A stretch of 5,792 nt of DNA from a virus: the IMG/VR virus record IMGVR_UViG_3300045988_001343, positions 1 to 5,792 of that record; one strand, 5' to 3'. Below are positions 1 through 5,792 of the stretch, piece by piece. The translations under genes were made by a program, and so were the position numbers. The notes under the pieces are model-generated. The model ran no database searches. It was not told where the DNA came from and was given only the letters and a program-made list of their open reading frames with translations. How positions within the stretch are numbered: the stretch's first letter is position 1; each line of letters opens with the position of its first letter.

Positions 1-127
1 ATCATTGTGCAACTTTATGTTGAAAACCTGTTGAAAGTGTTGAAAGTGTTGAAAACGCGCACAGCGCTAAAAAAGAATGGATTAAGCCGCGTTCCGCATT
101 CGCTACACACGGCAAGGCGCTAAAGCG
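1..127. repeat. Terminal direct repeat, copy 1. This is assembly redundancy of a circular genome, and the unique unit is 5,665 nt.
   Basis: A base-by-base read shows 1..127 (atcattgtgcaactttatg...ggcgctaaagcg) is identical to 5666..5792. The repeat runs to both window edges. Confidence 0.95.
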
Positions 128-146
128 CCATTCAAAACAAAAACAA

Positions 147-176
147 TTGACAAGCAACGAAAAAAAATAGTAAAAT
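147..176 (+). promoter_or_regulatory. Candidate sigma70-type promoter driving the peptidase and small-ORF block
   Basis: TTGACA at 147..152, an 18-nt A-rich spacer, then TAAAAT at 171..176. It sits about 10 nt upstream of the GAGAGG Shine-Dalgarno sequence (187..192) of the first gene. Confidence 0.5.
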
Positions 177-200
177 CCGAAATAAAGAGAGGTGAACACA

Positions 201-593
201 ATGGCCATCCAATGCTATATCATGGACACAGACGCAAACGAAAAAGTCGGACAGCACTTCAAAGTAAAAGAATTCGCTTGCAAAGACGGTTCACAAGTAG
301 TTTTTATAGATAACTACCTAGTATCTATCCTAGACATTCTCAGAAACCAAGTCGGAAAGCCTGTAATCATCAACAGTGGATACCGGACACCGGCAAGGAA
401 TGAAGCAGTAGGCGGTGCAAAATACTCATACCATATGCGCGGTATGGCAGCAGACATTCGAATAAACGGAATGAACGCAAAAGAAATTGCCGAAAAACTG
501 AATAAAATTATTCCGAACGAATGCGGCATTATCGTATACAAAAATTGGGTGCACATAGACACACGCAGCAGCAAATACAGAAAGGGGGTGTAA
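201..593 (+). CDS. Peptidase M15 family (M15_3 / D-Ala-D-Ala carboxypeptidase-like zinc peptidase); putative peptidoglycan hydrolase or endolysin
   Basis: The translation contains KVKEFACKDGS...VFID, SGYRTPARNEAVGGAKYSYHMRGMAADI (SxHxxGxAxD zinc-ligand signature) and WVHIDTR (third zinc ligand His). This is the typical M15_3/DUF882-type architecture. The ORF track starts at GTG 192, but that codon overlaps the SD. ATG 201 lies 8 nt after GAGAGG and is the more likely start. Confidence 0.8.
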   Translation: MAIQCYIMDTDANEKVGQHFKVKEFACKDGSQVVFIDNYLVSILDILRNQVGKPVIINSGYRTPARNEAVGGAKYSYHMRGMAADIRINGMNAKEIAEKLNKIIPNECGIIVYKNWVHIDTRSSKYRKGV

Positions 594-595
594 AA

Positions 596-700
596 ATGGC
601 ACTTATCAGCATTAAAGACCTCAAAGCCGCAATTGCAGTTATGCGACAGATCTTGGAAAAGCTAGACGAGATCTATCATGTACTACACGACAAGCAGTAA
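596..700 (+). CDS. Hypothetical 34-aa protein (MALISIKDLKAAIAVMRQILEKLDEIYHVLHDKQ), apparently coupled to the peptidase gene
   Basis: The ATG is 2 nt after the peptidase stop, and a GGGGGTG SD-like sequence (583..589) lies 6 nt upstream. The product is a predicted amphipathic helix. It is below the ORF-track length cutoff and I recognise no family. Confidence 0.4.
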   Translation: MALISIKDLKAAIAVMRQILEKLDEIYHVLHDKQ

Positions 701-736
701 ATGAATGACGAATGACCTGTGAAGGAGAATAGCTAA

Positions 737-958
737 ATGAAATCATGGAATGTACGCGACCAGACCAAAGAAGCATTGGAAGAACTGCTCACGCGAAAAT
801 ACAAAGAAATTAATGGAAATTACAAAATGCTTAGAAAAATGTCAAACATCGAGGACGCAAAAAGACTGATAGACGAAATTTGGCAAATAAAAAGCTTTGT
901 AAACGCCATTGAATTAGAGCTAATACGAAGGGAGTATAACAATGGGACGACATCGTAA
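737..958 (+). CDS. Hypothetical 73-aa protein, helical and charged
   Basis: AAGGAG SD at 722..727 lies 9 nt upstream of ATG 737. The ORF is same-strand and compactly arranged, and its 3' end overlaps the next gene by 17 nt. I see no recognisable motif. Confidence 0.55.
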   Translation: MKSWNVRDQTKEALEELLTRKYKEINGNYKMLRKMSNIEDAKRLIDEIWQIKSFVNAIELELIRREYNNGTTS

Positions 959-1064
959 AGCAATGAGCGGCGCAAAAGACCGCCGCATGTTTAACGTAAC
1001 TGCACGAAAAACCAAAAGCATCAACCTCAGCCAAAAGCCTATGCGCGGTGGCATCCGGCTGTAA
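942..1064 (+). CDS. Small basic DNA-binding/packaging protein, resembling phiX174 J and gokushovirus ORF8
   Basis: My own translation gives 40 aa: MGRHRKAMSGAKDRRMFNVTARKTKSINLSQKPMRGGIRL. It is very rich in Arg/Lys and ends in PMRGGIRL. I recognise that ending as the characteristic C-terminus of the small basic proteins of gokushovirus-type Microviridae. An AGGGAG SD lies about 8 nt upstream. The ORF is missing from the track because of its size. Confidence 0.7.
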   Translation: MGRHRKAMSGAKDRRMFNVTARKTKSINLSQKPMRGGIRL

Positions 1065-1079
1065 AAAAGGAGAAAAAAA

Positions 1080-1319
1080 ATGGAACATCTGTATTATGGC
1101 ATTTGGGACAACGTAGCAAAATGCTACGCATGGGTAGGCGAGAGCAAGAACAATGCAACCTTTGCACGTATGTGCAGCGTAATGGCGAAGGATGAAAAAA
1201 CCTTCATTGGACAGGAGCCAGGTGATTACATCGGCTACCAGTTAGCAGCATTCAACGACGAGACCGGCGAATTTTGCAACAACAAGGAAAAAGTGTGGGA
1301 GGGCAAGCCACATGAATAA
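1080..1319 (+). CDS. Hypothetical 79-aa protein, possibly a non-structural microvirus protein
   Basis: AAGGAGA SD at 1067..1073 lies about 6 nt upstream of ATG 1080. The stop overlaps the next gene's start (ATGAATAA). The N-terminal LYYGIWDNVAKCYAWVG...NNATFARMC loosely resembles small conserved proteins I recall from metagenomic Microviridae, but I cannot name a family. Confidence 0.6.
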   Translation: MEHLYYGIWDNVAKCYAWVGESKNNATFARMCSVMAKDEKTFIGQEPGDYIGYQLAAFNDETGEFCNNKEKVWEGKPHE

Positions 1320-1704
1320 ACGATACGAAGAAGGGCGAGAGCCCTTCTTTTCTAAATCAGGAGAGAAATTCCAAAAACAATACGTTTGGACAAAAAACGA
1401 AAAAGGAGAAGAAGTACTGCAAGAAACTGCACCAATCGACATCCAACAGGAAATTGAAAGCTATGCAGATGAATGTGATATCAAAAGCATTGTCCGAAAA
1501 GCAAGTTTTGACCCGCAGTTTCTGAAAAGCCTGTCAGAAGGAGCACTAAACGGAACAGAAGTAGACATCACGGAATTTCCGCAGAACATTCACGAGTATC
1601 ACCGCATGATGGCGACCGCACAGGCAAACGCCATGAAACTTAAAGAACTGCAAAAAATGGCAGCAGCAGAACCTAAAGCAGAACCTAAAGCAGAGGAGGA
1701 ATAA
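1312..1704 (+). CDS. VP3: Putative internal scaffolding protein (VP3-like)
   Basis: A 130-aa acidic protein sits immediately upstream of VP1. The motif ESYADECDIKSIVRK matches the (S/D)xxDECDIxxI motif I associate with gokushovirus VP3 scaffolds. A GGAGG SD (1298..1302) lies 9 nt upstream. Confidence 0.6.
   Translation: MNKRYEEGREPFFSKSGEKFQKQYVWTKNEKGEEVLQETAPIDIQQEIESYADECDIKSIVRKASFDPQFLKSLSEGALNGTEVDITEFPQNIHEYHRMMATAQANAMKLKELQKMAAAEPKAEPKAEEE
1328..1349 (+). other. Stem-loop followed by a T-tract, just inside the 5' end of the VP3 ORF. It could be a weak terminator, an attenuator or an RNA-stability element.
   Basis: aagaagggc (1328..1336), loop gaga, then gcccttctt (1341..1349), followed by ttct. 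The stem is 9 bp. It lies 9 nt after the stop of the 79-aa ORF. Confidence 0.35.
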
Positions 1705-1706
1705 AA

Positions 1707-3389
1707 GTGAATCGAAACAACGAAAGACACTTTAATCAGATTCCAGAAATGAAAGCGAGTCGAACGCGATTTAACCGTGACCAGACGATTTTAACAACGT
1801 TCGATGCCGGCAAGCTGATTCCATTTTATGTTGACGAAGTATTACCAGGCGATACCTTCAACGTAAACACGACAGCAATTATTCGAATGACCACACCAAA
1901 GTATCCGGTGATGGACGATGCATTCATTGACTTCTACTACTTCTATTGTCCTAACAGAATTCTATGGGACAACTTCAAATACTTCATGGGAGAAGTAGAG
2001 GCAACGCCATGGCTGCCAAAAAAAGAATACGCAATGCCAAGAATCGTAATCGACGGAACGGATAGCAAACCAAAGCCAAACGAAAAATCCGTACTAGACT
2101 ATATGGGAGTGCCAACCAAAGTCAAAAAAACGTTTGTGATTAACGCGCTACCCGTAAGGGCGTACGTCAAAATCTGGAATGAATTTTTCAGAGATGAAAA
2201 CGTAGATAACGTAGCAGCGATAAAAACAGACGATAATCCCGTAATATACGAATTTGGAGACGAAAACTGGGTGCAAGCAGCAGAAAACAACGCGTACAAA
2301 GGCGGAAATCTGTTGCCGGTAAACAAATTCCATGATTATTTTACAAGCTGTCTGCCGTATCCTCAGCGCGGGCCGGCAGTAACAATTCCAATGACTGGTA
2401 ATGCACCTATCAGATTGGGAAGCCCCGAAGGACAATACCAAGATTACGAAGGGTCGGTAGAAATGGTGCTAGGTGCAACAAGCACATCCAACGTACCCGG
2501 GTCTCTAACATATGGAAATTTCACAGGAACACCCGGAGAAAAAAAGGCAATGCAATTTACCGGAAAAGAAAAAACAACCGGCGAATTAGGTGCAGGCGGG
2601 TGGATGTATGCAGACCTCGCATCAGTCACCGCAGCAACCGTAAACGACTTGCGAAAAGCAATAGCAGTACAGCAGTACTACGAAGCACTGGCAAGAGGCG
2701 GCAGCAGATACCGTGAACAGGTACAAGCACTATGGAACGTAGTTATCAGTGATAAAACCGTACAGGTGCCAGAATACCTTGGCGGTGGCAGATACCACGT
2801 AAATATCAATCAAATCGTACAGACAAGCGGACAGCAGGCAAACGCAGACACGCCAATTGGCGAGACGGGCGCAATGTCGGTAACGCCAATCAACGAAAGC
2901 TCTTTTACCAAATCTTTTGAAGAACATGGATTTGTAATTGGTGTATGTTGTGTACGACACAACCGCAGTTATCAGCAAGGTTTGGAGCGTTTTTGGAGCA
3001 GAAGAGACAAACTTGACTATTATGTACCGCAGTTTGCAAACCTGGGCGAGCAACCGGTAAAAAAGAAAGAAATCATGTTAACCGGCGATAAAACGGACGA
3101 AGAAACGTTCGGATATCAAGAAGCATGGGCAGAATATCGCATGAAACCTAACCGGGTATCTGGCAAAATGAGAAGCAATGCAACAGGCACGTTAGATTTC
3201 TGGCACTACGCAGATAACTACAATACAGTGCCAACACTTTCGCAAGACTGGATGGAAGAAGGAAAAGCAGAAATTGCACGCACACTCGTTGTGCAAGATG
3301 AGCCGCAATTTTTCGGTGCTATCCGCGTAGCAAACAAAACCACGAGACGGATGCCGCTATACAGCGTACCGGGCTTGTACAAACTGTAA
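1707..3389 (+). CDS. VP1: Major capsid protein VP1 (Microviridae F-protein family)
   Basis: The product is 560 aa. The N-terminus HFNQIPEMKASRTRFNRDQTILTTFDAGKLIPFYVDEVLPGDTF...RMTTPKYPVMDDAFIDFYYFYCPNRILWDNF matches the conserved gokushovirus VP1 N-terminal block. The start is GTG, 6 nt after the AGGAGGA SD (1694..1700). Confidence 0.93.
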   Translation: MNRNNERHFNQIPEMKASRTRFNRDQTILTTFDAGKLIPFYVDEVLPGDTFNVNTTAIIRMTTPKYPVMDDAFIDFYYFYCPNRILWDNFKYFMGEVEATPWLPKKEYAMPRIVIDGTDSKPKPNEKSVLDYMGVPTKVKKTFVINALPVRAYVKIWNEFFRDENVDNVAAIKTDDNPVIYEFGDENWVQAAENNAYKGGNLLPVNKFHDYFTSCLPYPQRGPAVTIPMTGNAPIRLGSPEGQYQDYEGSVEMVLGATSTSNVPGSLTYGNFTGTPGEKKAMQFTGKEKTTGELGAGGWMYADLASVTAATVNDLRKAIAVQQYYEALARGGSRYREQVQALWNVVISDKTVQVPEYLGGGRYHVNINQIVQTSGQQANADTPIGETGAMSVTPINESSFTKSFEEHGFVIGVCCVRHNRSYQQGLERFWSRRDKLDYYVPQFANLGEQPVKKKEIMLTGDKTDEETFGYQEAWAEYRMKPNRVSGKMRSNATGTLDFWHYADNYNTVPTLSQDWMEEGKAEIARTLVVQDEPQFFGAIRVANKTTRRMPLYSVPGLYKL

Positions 3390-3400
3390 GAAAGGAGGAT

Positions 3401-3426
3401 GCCTGGGAAAAACCCAGGCTATTTTT
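3401..3426 (+). terminator. Rho-independent terminator between VP1 and VP2
   Basis: gcctggg (3401..3407), loop aaaaa, cccaggc (3413..3419), then tattttt. It begins 12 nt after the VP1 stop. Confidence 0.7.
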
Positions 3427-3428
3427 AA

Positions 3429-4298
3429 ATGAGCGCATTACCAGGACTTTTAACAGCGCTAAACGTAGCGGGAAACGTGGCGAACACAATCGGAAATTTT
3501 GCAGGAGCAGCTAAAAACATAGCCGGAGCGTTTGGCGGATGGGGACAGACAGGCAATAGCCAAAGCAGCGGCGGCAGCACAAGCCAGGGCGGCGGACACT
3601 CCGAAAGCGGAAGTCAATCAGGCACCAACGTACAGCAAGTAAATGACTGGCTAAAGCAGGCATACGCATACCAAGGGCAAGAAGCAGCCATGCAAGGTAA
3701 ATACAACAGCCAGAGTATGCTTAAACAGATGGGCTATAACACGCTGCAAGCAATCATGCAAGGCGTATACAACCACATCGAAAACAGCGTAGCAATGAAC
3801 TACAACAGTGCAGAAGCACTAGCAAACCGTGAATGGCAAGAGCACATGTCAAGCACAGCGTACCAACGAGCCGTTGAGGACATGAAAAAAGCAGGACTTA
3901 ACCCTATCTTAGCATTCTCAAACGGCGGCGCAAGCACACCGGGTGGAAGCGCAGGAACAATCAGTGGAGCAAGTATGGGACTTGCAAGCAGCAGCGCACT
4001 AGGAGTGAGTCGAAGCGGAGGATTTGTGCCTAACGCATACGAAAGCAGCAGTTGGAGCAAAAGTGACTGGTACAATGCAGCACAAAGCTGGCAGCAGATG
4101 CTAAGTACAACGCAAATGACACCGTACGGACTGCAAAAAGCACTTACGGAAGTCGGAAACGACACGGACGAAGCCATCACAAAAGCAACGGATAAAATGG
4201 GAAAAGGAAAAAGCACAGAACCAAACAGAAGCATAAAACCGCAAGATAAAACAGGAAGCTACGGAGAAAAACGAAAGCCAGGTGATTATTTAAGGTGA
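3429..4298 (+). CDS. VP2: DNA pilot / minor capsid protein VP2
   Basis: The product is 289 aa with a Gly/Ala-rich hydrophobic N-terminus and Gly/Ser/Gln low-complexity stretches. The block EWQEHMSSTAYQRAVEDMKKAGLNPILAF matches the MSxTAxQRxxxDxKxAGLNP signature of gokushovirus VP2. The gene lies directly after VP1. Confidence 0.85.
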   Translation: MSALPGLLTALNVAGNVANTIGNFAGAAKNIAGAFGGWGQTGNSQSSGGSTSQGGGHSESGSQSGTNVQQVNDWLKQAYAYQGQEAAMQGKYNSQSMLKQMGYNTLQAIMQGVYNHIENSVAMNYNSAEALANREWQEHMSSTAYQRAVEDMKKAGLNPILAFSNGGASTPGGSAGTISGASMGLASSSALGVSRSGGFVPNAYESSSWSKSDWYNAAQSWQQMLSTTQMTPYGLQKALTEVGNDTDEAITKATDKMGKGKSTEPNRSIKPQDKTGSYGEKRKPGDYLR

Positions 4299-4996
4299 GT
4301 TGCTGCAAGCCATTAATAAGGCTGTACAACCCGAAAAATAAAGACATAAGCGGGCGGGTGTATTCACTCGCCCGTTTTTCTGAAATATCGGGAAAACAGC
4401 TCAAATATGAAGATTTGATGTACAGAAAAGATGTCATGCTAATACCATGTGGACAATGTATCGGATGCAGAATTCGACAGCGTGAGGACTGGACAACACG
4501 AATAGAATTAGAAGCAAGAAAATATCCAAGAGAAGAAGTTTGGTTTATTACACTCACCTACGATGACGACCATGTACCAGGCATGATAGTAAACACAGGC
4601 GAAATCATGCGAAAAGTACAATACGTCTGGAAGCCGGGAGAGAAGCGCCCTGAAAGCGTCCAAACGTTGCTATATACTGACATTCAAAAGTTCTTAAAAC
4701 GTCTCAGAAAAGCTTATAGAGGCAAATTACGCTATTTTGTAGCGGGAGAATACGGAGAACAAACAGCAAGACCACACTACCACATGATACTATACGGGTG
4801 GCAGCCAACAGACCTAGAGCACCTATACAAGATACAGCACAACGGATACTTTACAAGTAAATGGCTAGCAGACCTATGGGGCATGGGTCAAATCCAGATA
4901 GCACAAGCAGTACCGGAAACGTATAGATATGTTGCGGGATACGTTACAAAAAAAAGTGTACGAGATAGACGGCAAAAAAGCAAACGCATACTATGA
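4295..4996 (+). CDS. VP4: Replication initiation protein VP4 (HUH rolling-circle endonuclease), N-terminal frame. The frame is lost at the A8 run at 4948..4955.
   Basis: The GTG start overlaps the VP2 stop (GTGA), and an AGGTGA SD lies 9 nt upstream. Motifs are PCGQCIGCRIRQREDWTTRIELE, HYH-MILYG (HUH motif, 4775..4783) and YVAGYVTKK (two catalytic Tyr at 4928..4930 and 4940..4942; compare phiX174 A protein YVAKYVNK). After the A8 run this frame gives 14 unrelated residues and then a stop. Confidence 0.85.
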   Translation: MSCCKPLIRLYNPKNKDISGRVYSLARFSEISGKQLKYEDLMYRKDVMLIPCGQCIGCRIRQREDWTTRIELEARKYPREEVWFITLTYDDDHVPGMIVNTGEIMRKVQYVWKPGEKRPESVQTLLYTDIQKFLKRLRKAYRGKLRYFVAGEYGEQTARPHYHMILYGWQPTDLEHLYKIQHNGYFTSKWLADLWGMGQIQIAQAVPETYRYVAGYVTKKSVRDRRQKSKRIL

Positions 4997-5513
4997 ACTA
5001 GGGCAGCAAAAACCTTTTGCGTGTATGAGCCTCAAGCCAGGATTGGGAGACCAATATTATCAAGAACACAAAGCAGAAATCTGGAAACAAGGCTATATCC
5101 AATGCACAAACGGCAAACGCGCACAAATTCCACGCTATTATGAAAAAATGATGGAAGCAGAAAACCCACAAAGGTTGTGGAGAATTAAACAGAACAGACA
5201 AGCAGCAGCCATAGCAGAAAACCGACTAAAGTATGAAGACACAGACTTTGCGGAACAGTGCAAGACAAAAGAAAGGGTCATCAAGAAGCAGATGAAAAAA
5301 ATGAGGGACACTTTAACAGCGTCATGGTGTCACCTAGCCCAGTACCTATCAAGTAAGGTACTGGGCTATTGTCATTTAAAGGCTCCATATATCAGTCTAT
5401 TCAGTCTATCAAATAGCTATACTTTATCGCGCGTGCACACGCGCGCGAAACGCGCACGCGCGCACGCGCGGCTCTTCGGCGCTATTGTTCGCAAGCTCAC
5501 AAGCGCTGTATAA
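4929..5513 (+). CDS. VP4: Replication initiation protein VP4, C-terminal continuation in the +1 frame. The ATG at 4929 is probably not a real start, and the last ~65 codons are of doubtful coding status.
   Basis: From 4956 onward this frame reads VYEIDGKKANAYYELGQQKPFACMSLKPGLGDQYY...RAQIPRYYEKMM. That is the expected continuation of a microvirus Rep after the catalytic Tyr motif (the F-x-MS-x-KPG-x-G block). The tail from about 5320 runs through a hairpin, a tandem repeat and the CG tracts. Confidence 0.75.
   Translation: MLRDTLQKKVYEIDGKKANAYYELGQQKPFACMSLKPGLGDQYYQEHKAEIWKQGYIQCTNGKRAQIPRYYEKMMEAENPQRLWRIKQNRQAAAIAENRLKYEDTDFAEQCKTKERVIKKQMKKMRDTLTASWCHLAQYLSSKVLGYCHLKAPYISLFSLSNSYTLSRVHTRAKRARAHARLFGAIVRKLTSAV
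5335..5368. other. Perfect 13-bp stem with an 8-nt loop. Candidate ssDNA structural element, either a complementary-strand priming site or a 3' end-forming hairpin.
   Basis: tagcccagtacct (5335..5347), loop atcaagta (5348..5355), then aggtactgggcta (5356..5368), which is the exact reverse complement. No clean T-tract follows (ttgtcattt), so it is not a textbook intrinsic terminator. Confidence 0.6.
5392..5409. repeat. 9-bp tandem direct repeat, 2 copies (tcagtctat)
   Basis: tcagtctat at 5392..5400 and again at 5401..5409. Confidence 0.8.
5438..5480. repeat. GC-rich island with two 20-nt perfectly alternating pyrimidine-purine tracts and a CACGCGC/GCGCGTG heptamer cluster
   Basis: 5438..5457 (cgcgcgtgcacacgcgcgcg) and 5461..5480 (cgcgcacgcgcgcacgcgcg) both alternate Y-R at every position and are separated by aaa. 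GCGCGTG at 5439..5445 is the inverted form of CACGCGC at 5448..5454, 5465..5471 and 5473..5479. The island contrasts sharply with the A-rich genome. Confidence 0.85.
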
Positions 5514-5554
5514 TATATAACTTGTTGCAGGAGTAGTAGTAGAGGTGGTGGAAA

Positions 5555-5719
5555 AGTTGAAAAGTACTAAAATTTAACGCCAAAGCGTAAATAAAAAAGA
5601 AAATAGCTGTTGAAAATTTTGTTAAAAACTTGTTGAAATGTTGAAAGTTCGTCAAAATGACAAAGATCATTGTGCAACTTTATGTTGAAAACCTGTTGAA
5701 AGTGTTGAAAGTGTTGAAA
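5555..5719 (+). repeat. Iteron-like array of eight same-orientation (T/A)GTTGAAA octamers in the major intergenic region
   Basis: Copies lie at 5555..5562 (agttgaaa), 5608..5615, 5631..5638, 5639..5646, 5683..5690, 5694..5701, 5703..5710 and 5712..5719. The last four equal 18..25, 29..36, 38..45 and 47..54 in the first repeat copy. The last three form a 9-bp tandem, tgttgaaag. Degenerate copies are gttaaaa at 5621 and gtcaaaa at 5651. Confidence 0.85.
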
Positions 5720-5792
5720 ACGCGCACAGCGCTAAAAAAGAATGGATTAAGCCGCGTTCCGCATTCGCTACACACGGCAAGGCGCTAAAGCG
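5666..5792. repeat. Terminal direct repeat, copy 2 (identical to 1..127)
   Basis: Exact 127-nt identity with the start of the window. Confidence 0.95.

Follow-up and report, generated by a model that had tools for sequence, protein, structure and literature searches.

Repeats near a candidate Rep origin of gut gokushoviruses are probably host DnaA boxes within a module resembling a bacterial unwinding system

Introduction

Gokushoviruses (Microviridae) are among the commonest phages of the human and animal gut; hardly any of them has been cultured, their hosts are mostly unknown and their replication origin is undefined. Here we analyse a stretch of 5,792 nucleotides (IMG/VR record IMGVR_UViG_3300045988_001343, positions 1 to 5,792; hereafter the window), which its genes identify as a gokushovirus and which carries, in the intergenic region downstream of the gene for the replication protein VP4 (Rep), an array of octamers of the type TGTTGAAA in the same orientation. 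An earlier note on this DNA, made from the letters alone, had compared the array with the repeats by which rolling-circle Reps recognise their origins. We consider it likely that the octamers are instead host DnaA boxes, that they belong to a module of the type known as the basal unwinding system (BUS) of bacterial chromosomes, situated near the Rep origin, and that host DnaA binds there and opens the replicative form.

Several described systems come close to such a locus. In phiX174 and G4, members of the same family, the origin comprises 30 bp inside gene A; that of phiX174 has no repeats, no requirement for a hairpin and no involvement of DnaA. In pSC101, P1 oriR, F oriS and RK2 oriV, host DnaA sites beside the origin assist the replicon's own initiator; to our knowledge, a chromosome-type array of DnaA-trios is not known on origins of this kind. 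For the chromosome of Bacillus subtilis, work by Richardson from 2016 and 2019 is said to have described a BUS consisting of the incC DnaA-boxes 6/7, DnaA-trios and an AT-rich element. By its definition, a BUS comprises a DnaA box with no more than 2 mismatches and three or more NAN trios, separated by a spacer of up to 16 bp; the spacer is most often ~13 bp long and includes a GC-rich gap of ~4 bp, and 3'-GAT-5' (5'-TAG-3') is favoured as the trio nearest the box (Pelliciari 2021, PMC8287927).

Results

The repeats belong to a larger module of BUS type

Exact copies of TGTTGAAA start at seven positions of the window (5608, 5631, 5639, 5683, 5694, 5703 and 5712), the variant AGTTGAAA lies at 5555 and a degenerate copy, TGTTAAAA, at 5620. 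This reproduces all positions behind the earlier claim of seven exact octamers and one variant within ~165 nt, as well as the abutting pair (5631-5646) and the 11, 9 and 9 nt spacing of the final four copies; the box-like 9-mer GGTGGAAAA (5547-5555) is an additional copy, absent from the earlier list. Counting the heptamer GTTGAAA on both strands gave 12 matches in the window, all on the + strand, against 1.30 +/- 1.17 expected (200 dinucleotide shuffles, maximum 5). Four of the 12 (19-54) are not independent, since positions 1-127 of the window are an exact copy of 5666-5792. This terminal repeat of 127 nt identifies the window as a circular genome of 5665 nt printed with an overlap, so that features in 1-127 are counted twice and the true number of heptamers in the unique genome is 8. 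All 8 copies are found on the + strand inside 165 nt (5555-5719), with none elsewhere and none in any gene, matching what had earlier been read by eye for the coding regions. Relatives, which the earlier note had proposed to inspect for equivalent arrays, have them: 10 of the 10 fetched from GenBank contain 5-8 clustered copies in the corresponding place.

An alignment of intergenic regions places the octamers in the right-hand part of a larger conserved module (5509-5720). Its parts and the elements around it are the following.

18-54, + strand: second printed copy of the distal DnaA box cluster, owing to the terminal redundancy; no separate array
5335-5368, + strand: hairpin A, prefixed by GGTGTCA (5326-5332), with a 13-bp stem and the 8-nt loop ATCAAGTA, just after VP4
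5428-5470, no strand assigned: GC-rich (CG/CA)n imperfect palindrome, left edge of the stretch whose orientation is reversed in some relatives
5509-5520, no strand assigned: AT-only tract TATAATATATAA of 12 nt, conserved in the alignment; putative DNA unwinding element
5521-5527, directly after the AT tract: invariant, phage-specific CTTGTTG
5528-5542, + strand: five putative DnaA-trios, CAG GAG TAG TAG TAG (5'-TAG-3' = 3'-GAT-5')
5543-5546, no strand assigned: 4-nt spacer AGGT from the trios to the first box, corresponding to the 'GC-rich' gap of the BUS
5547-5563, + strand: proximal pair of putative DnaA boxes, GGTGGAAAA (5547-5555) and AGTTGAAAA (5555-5563)
5572-5592, + strand: small hairpin of variable sequence, separating the proximal boxes from the middle cluster (-4.4 kcal/mol, z = -3.7)
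5608-5647, + strand: middle cluster of putative DnaA boxes, TGTTGAAAA (5608), TGTTAAAAA (5620), TGTTGAAAT (5631) and TGTTGAAAG (5639)
5683-5720, + strand: distal cluster of putative DnaA boxes, TGTTGAAAA (5683), TGTTGAAAG (5694), TGTTGAAAG (5703) and TGTTGAAAA (5712)
5722-5732, no strand assigned: short palindrome GCGCACAGCGC, right edge of the invertible segment

In order, polarity and parts the module equals a BUS: it has an AT tract, at least three trios, a gap of ~4 bp, a tandem box pair and further boxes. Both proximal boxes are one mismatch away from types that are present in the dnaA-dnaN origins of Oscillospiraceae, AGTTGAAAA (the first copy of the earlier list) from TGTTGAAAA and GGTGGAAAA from TGTGGAAAA. 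The five trios have TAG nearest the box, and their distance is 12 nt from AGTTGAAAA, with the 4-nt gap AGGT to the proximal box. Beyond the trios follows the AT tract, whose region is unstructured as a single strand when folded, and the boxes are oriented relative to it as in the loci L155, L162, L172, L248 and L256 described below. A pattern of BUS type was found at one place in the genome and in none of 2000 shuffled sequences. The module stands between VP4 and the peptidase gene and not beside dnaA/dnaN, and because of this location in a microvirus we speak of a BUS-like module and not of an oriC.

Next to the AT tract, the string TATATAACTTGTTG (5514-5527) does not vary in almost all of the module-bearing microviruses and is not present in host origins. 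The letters AACTTG within it (5519-5524) are reminiscent of the origin recognition sequence of phiX174, a possible resemblance that we note as no more than a lead. The second ACTTGTTG (5627) proved to be simply a box after the usual 'AACT' spacer, a combination that is seen in host origins too.

The same boxes mark dnaA-dnaN origins of gut Clostridia

The consensus of the repeat is TGT(T/G)GAAA(A); the complement, TTTTCAACA, differs by a single base from TTWTNCACA, the relaxed consensus of DnaA boxes. A scan of 185,579 species genomes for closely spaced triples of TGTTGAAA gave at least 120 loci; 13 of the loci listed show the pattern (TAG)n-spacer-box, mostly in metagenome-assembled genomes of Oscillospiraceae, Ruminococcus, Anaerofilum and other Clostridia. 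The best of them (L155, L162, L172 and L190) are composed of an AT-rich stretch, (TAG)2-5, GGGG/GGGC/GGTA and TGTTGAAAC TGTTGAAAA, followed by clusters of TGTTGAAA/TGTGGAAA, and the AT-rich stretch has the same place relative to the trios as in the phage. According to Pfam matches, the cluster is located between dnaA (3416-4774) and dnaN (5119-6258) in L172, between dnaN (443-1585) and dnaA (2330-3712) in L155, and just downstream of dnaA in L162; further boxes lie immediately upstream of dnaA in L172 and L162, as in bipartite Firmicutes origins. Because of this position in their origins we take TGTTGAAA to be a DnaA box of these bacteria.

The core of the phage module is almost letter-identical to these origins. 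In the phage L084 it reads TAGTAGTAG-GGGC-TGTTGAAAC-TGTTGAAAA, which equals the bacterial L172 letter for letter through the first box; L155 has the identical tandem TGTTGAAAC TGTTGAAAA following a GGGG spacer, the same tandem occupies the proximal position in other phage clades, and the string TGTTGAAAaccTGTTGAAA is common to phage and host origins. The position-weight matrix of the boxes and their spacings (8, 9, 11 and 12 nt) resemble those of the hosts as well, the 12, 11 and 8 nt of the middle cluster being among the spacings found in host origins. Canonical-box controls from IMG/VR (L248, L256) have the polarity (TAG)n-GGGC-TGTGGATAA TGTGGATAA, which is that of the phage. There are also differences: the phage boxes are unidirectional whereas host origins contain both orientations, the phage is without a second box region upstream of a dnaA gene, and its module resides on a 5.7-kb single-stranded DNA phage with an HUH rolling-circle Rep, with the AT tract facing a Rep-type hairpin. 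Taken together, the match to host origins and the adjoining trios and AT tract lead us to read the sites as host DnaA boxes, and the hosts are probably gut Oscillospiraceae/Ruminococcaceae (Clostridia).

Boxes of TGTTGAAA type also stand beside TAG trios outside Clostridia, in L224 (Mesoaciditoga), L148 and L243 (Anaerolineae) and L217 (Chloroflexota), so that this DnaA-box variant is not confined to one phylum; the cluster of L224 is situated between groEL and a phosphoesterase gene, not beside dnaA. In IMG/VR, the loci L248, L257, L268 and L256 contain complete canonical cores (an AT-rich stretch, (TAG)3-6, GGGC/GGGG, TGTGGATAA and more boxes), and a second TGTGGATAA directly abuts the first in L248, L257 and L268. 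Either they are oriC regions from bacteria that were deposited as viral, or they belong to large phages or plasmids whose origins depend on DnaA.

Conservation of the module among microviruses

With its 236 nt the module matches 45 GenBank records, all of them gut Microviridae/Gokushovirinae from human, pig, monkey, dog, mink and raccoon, in which the sole annotation of the region is an occasional 'hypothetical protein'. Where such features run across the array they are probably spurious. We considered a small protein and rejected it, as stop-free spans over the distal boxes range from 11 to 194 codons over every frame in 111 genomes, without a conserved open reading frame (ORF). An IMG/VR scan for three tandem octamers returned at least 117 stretches, and ~104 of those listed are microvirus-sized contigs, whose VP1 is 38-88% and whose VP4 is 37-95% identical to that of the window; most matches outside microviruses are coding tandem repeats and irrelevant here. 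Among the plasmids of PLSDB there was no match to the module. In a sample of 80 relatives picked by VP1 similarity alone, 66 have at least four exact boxes, and the remaining 14 include genomes with degenerate boxes (those inspected) and five others that are truncated contigs. Conservation of this noncoding stretch exceeds that of the genes: its nucleotide identity is 77-88% where VP1 is only 39-55% identical. At positions occupied by TGTTGAAAA in the window, including the first of the distal cluster, many relatives show TGTGGAAAA, a fit to the relaxed DnaA-box consensus; in L012, L018 and L020 there is a perfect TGTGGATAA, which is the consensus DnaA box TTATCCACA read on the complementary strand.

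This pattern bears directly on the proposal that the octamers are iterons of the Rep, positioning VP4 at the origin as the pMV158 bind locus or the iterons of geminiviruses and circoviruses do. The likeness is real, as in all of these cases short direct repeats lie near a nick hairpin of a small single-stranded DNA or rolling-circle replicon, and the array is intergenic, downstream of VP4 and near a conserved hairpin. Rep iterons, however, are Rep-specific and expected to change with the Rep, and the constancy of the octamer across VP4 proteins of 37-95% identity therefore disfavours them. The same octamer occurs with the same neighbours, i.e. TGTGGAAA, trios and a G-rich spacer, in cellular dnaA-dnaN origins without microvirus genes; canonical DnaA boxes replace octamers at homologous positions, and the array occurs in either orientation with respect to VP4 and hairpin A (see below). 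Thus we hold Rep iterons to be very improbable. From the initiator-site idea of the earlier note there remain the same-orientation sites, the origin-like intergenic region and the conservation in relatives, but the binder is probably not the phage Rep; its fallback, according to which some regulator of phage or host binds the sites, came closest to the evidence.

Not only the boxes but also the remaining parts are conserved. Trios, spacer and boxes together are present in 103 of 128 loci of the viral set, with (TAG)2-5 at the trio position, and the spacer between trios and box is exactly 4 nt in 95 of these 103 phage modules. In 114 microvirus genomes, 855 boxes lie on the strand of the array versus 10 on the opposite strand. 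Such regularity helps to judge whether the module might be a DnaA decoy only, selected for titration that shuts down or retunes host initiation, and not a phage origin. Multicopy DnaA-box clusters inhibit initiation in B. subtilis, from which the 'inc' region has its name, and datA of E. coli or Bacillus DnaA-box clusters on plasmids provide a precedent of dense boxes which, outside the chromosomal origin, titrate DnaA in multicopy. The ~10 host-type boxes per genome and the occurrence of the module on either strand relative to the genes would suit this role. A decoy has no need, though, for trios, an exact 4-nt spacer or an AT tract, which titration loci can do without and which are kept in 95-103 module-bearing genomes, and the single box orientation together with an AT end toward hairpin A points to directional filament growth and opening. 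A dense DnaA-box cluster is present. Conservation of the trios and the AT tract hints at a role that goes beyond titration, and titration as the sole function appears unlikely to us.

Two further loci with clustered boxes were noted. L359, a distant gokushovirus (VP1 36-41% identical), has three canonical TGTGGATAA boxes on the reverse strand (2250-2280) at 11-bp spacing, ~230 nt from a GGTGTCA-type hairpin and without TAG trios; IMG/VR scans for (TAG)3 + TGTGGATAA and for three TGTGGATAA gave no other microvirus among the matches listed. DnaA may be recruited in other microvirus lineages with other hosts as well. In L097, a 126-kb IMG/VR contig, ten TGTTGAAA boxes occupy ~130 nt of the reverse strand (~8100-8230), with no trios within 80 nt upstream of the boxes; this cluster may represent DnaA boxes of another phage or of a bacterial fragment.

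Hairpin A and the orientation of the module

Hairpin A folds at -14.3 kcal/mol (z = -5.4). Its 58 unique variants in relatives were folded one by one in place of RNAalifold, which predicted nothing for this hairpin, MAFFT having moved one clade by one column; all 58 fold with at least 10 bp. There are at least four unrelated stem sequences, and the loop retains (T)ATCAAG or AGACAAG. Changing stems with a constant loop fit a protein that recognises a stem-loop site, and hairpin A is a likely candidate for the nick site of VP4 (Rep). We found no published description of a GGTGTCA-prefixed hairpin of this kind. As in phiX174 and G4, nicking of the viral strand by an HUH Rep would be expected to be site-specific; in contrast to these phages, both the putative nick hairpin and the DnaA module of this genome lie between genes.

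Hairpin A is always co-oriented with the genes, whereas the DnaA module occurs on either strand, always ~30-340 nt from the hairpin. Both were located in 86 genomes, and in 84 of them it is the AT-rich end of the module that is turned toward hairpin A, at a distance of 31-274 nt. Three close relatives, L044, L061 and L078 (VP4 91-95% identical), have the module inverted relative to genes and hairpin A, and the breakpoints coincide with the GC-rich palindrome (5428-5470) and with GCGCACAGCGC (5722-5732), which suggests recurrent inversion at the two palindromes. The former (inverted repeat I1) has 20-nt arms that are 85% complementary; its folding energy is no better than that of shuffles (z = -1.15) and it is missing in some clades. 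Inversion of the module is likewise seen throughout a divergent clade (VP1 ~40%), in which its place is between VP2 and VP4.

These rearrangements weigh on two other explanations. One is a transcriptional element, either stacked -35-like TTGAAA sequences, an alternative raised by the earlier note, or DnaA boxes that tie early transcription to the DnaA status of the host. TTGAAA is indeed similar to TTGACA, two weak promoter-like matches (9/12) begin in the array, and DnaA is a known transcription factor. Yet these matches are weak, and the total of promoter-like sites does not exceed that of shuffles (7 versus 8.7); a strong promoter of the peptidase gene, TTGACA-18-TAAAAT (147-176), is located ~95 nt past the last box, and several lineages have the module in inverted orientation or in the VP2-VP4 interval. 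A transcriptional role is highly improbable on these grounds, and the -35 alternative found no support.

The other is an element acting as single-stranded DNA or RNA, i.e. a complementary-strand origin on the packaged strand, a packaging signal or a small RNA with protein-binding UGUUGAAA motifs. A second small hairpin separates the middle and distal clusters, and in the hairpin at 5572-5592 the pairing is kept in relatives despite differing sequences. Such small hairpins with compensating changes between the clusters, the 8-12 nt spacings that are out of helical phase, and octamers without a complement on the same strand, which would stay single-stranded, could all be accommodated by this explanation. 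A strand-specific element, on the other hand, should not tolerate inversion relative to genes and hairpin A, no conserved promoter is found upstream of the module, and the identity with the architecture of double-stranded host origins would be left unexplained. Scanned against Rfam with a permissive threshold, the complete window yielded a single chance-level match, located elsewhere, and none on the array, for which reason the reading as a noncoding RNA was dropped. We give a single-stranded element very little credence.

Genome context

All genes of the window lie on the + strand:

192-593, + strand: peptidase M15 endolysin
737-958, + strand: 73-aa ORF
1080-1319, + strand: VP5
1312-1704, + strand: VP3 scaffold
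1707-3389, + strand: VP1 capsid
3429-4298, + strand: VP2 pilot
4295-4996 and 4929-5513, + strand: VP4 Rep, in two ORFs

The nearest GenBank records are human and pig gut gokushoviruses with identities of 75-84%. VP4, a single ORF of ~339 aa in relatives, is split in the window by a frameshift, an additional G following the A8 run at 4948-4955 (site 4948-4956). A second 1-nt length difference is found in an A-rich stretch near the usual stop (~5296-5303), and the second VP4 ORF thereby continues through hairpin A up to 5513. The split probably reflects homopolymer sequencing errors, but may alternatively arise from slippage on the A run.

L010 (KX513876.1) shares 84% identity with the window in peptidase M15, against 39% in VP1 and 38% in VP4. 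Endolysin and DnaA module appear to be swapped between highly divergent gokushoviruses, as host-specific parts would be.

Discussion

The architecture of the module, its conservation among microviruses and its match to host origins can be read directly from the genomes compared here. From them we infer DnaA binding, unwinding and a coupling to VP4 (Rep), which might proceed as follows. Host DnaA-ATP would fill the ~10 same-orientation boxes on the double-stranded replicative form, and DnaA would oligomerise from the proximal boxes onto the TAG-trio strand. The resulting filament would melt the AT tract, which points at hairpin A, and this opening would either expose the single-stranded substrate needed by the HUH Rep or allow the host helicase to be loaded and the replicative form to be replicated. 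In high copy, the replicative form would also titrate DnaA from the host. More tentatively, and as a possibility that we would not yet favour, the locus could be a hybrid origin, in which a chromosome-type DnaA module, copied from a host oriC or converged on it, opens the replicative form for an HUH rolling-circle Rep. In a carrier state the replicative form might even behave as a DnaA-dependent mini-chromosome.

The theta origins of pSC101, P1, F and RK2 are related in that a mobile replicon borrows the opening and helicase loading of its host. They differ in having an iteron-binding Rep, theta replication and one to few boxes, whereas the phage is a rolling-circle microvirus with a full BUS. 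DnaA boxes beside theta origins of plasmids and phages are thus well known; a full BUS on a rolling-circle single-stranded DNA phage is not, within the searches made. Our full-text searches yielded no report of DnaA boxes, iterons or a defined origin in Microviridae or gokushoviruses, and no description of DnaA-trios in a phage.

Several points speak against the proposed role of host DnaA or limit it. The Microviridae studied so far, phiX174 and G4, do not need DnaA; we are aware of no BUS-dependent rolling-circle replicon, and our literature searches found none. The AT tract is only 12 nt long. The 84 of 86 genomes with the AT end toward hairpin A reflect only ~3 independent arrangements, two of which have this orientation, and in the lineage of L044, L061 and L078 it is the box end that faces the hairpin. 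Comparison of the module with the bacterial loci by blastn gave motif-level matches only, without long homology; matches at this level cannot show a recent capture from a host origin. The assignment of TGTTGAAA as a putative DnaA box of these bacteria comes from its position in their origins. As regards the host, the assignment is drawn from just the box type and the gut source of the samples, and among the matches listed, no bacterial locus with the octamer triple carried microvirus genes, i.e. there was no prophage.

If host DnaA does act at this module, the group could be assigned to hosts with DnaA boxes of TTTTCAACA type (Oscillospiraceae/Ruminococcaceae), and a testable picture of how replication of these phages starts would be at hand. 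It would mean that the minimal unwinding unit of bacterial chromosomes can be transplanted to a virus of 5.7 kb and joined there with an initiator of the rolling-circle type; should the hybrid origin hold true, no earlier case would be on record of a BUS outside cellular chromosomes or of a DnaA-dependent step in the replication of Microviridae. The module also constitutes a compact natural substrate of ~210 bp for studies of DnaA filaments, with DnaA from bacteria that are hard to grow. For uncultured phages, the box variant would amount to a built-in signature of the host, which suggests that the DnaA-box type could serve phage-host prediction.

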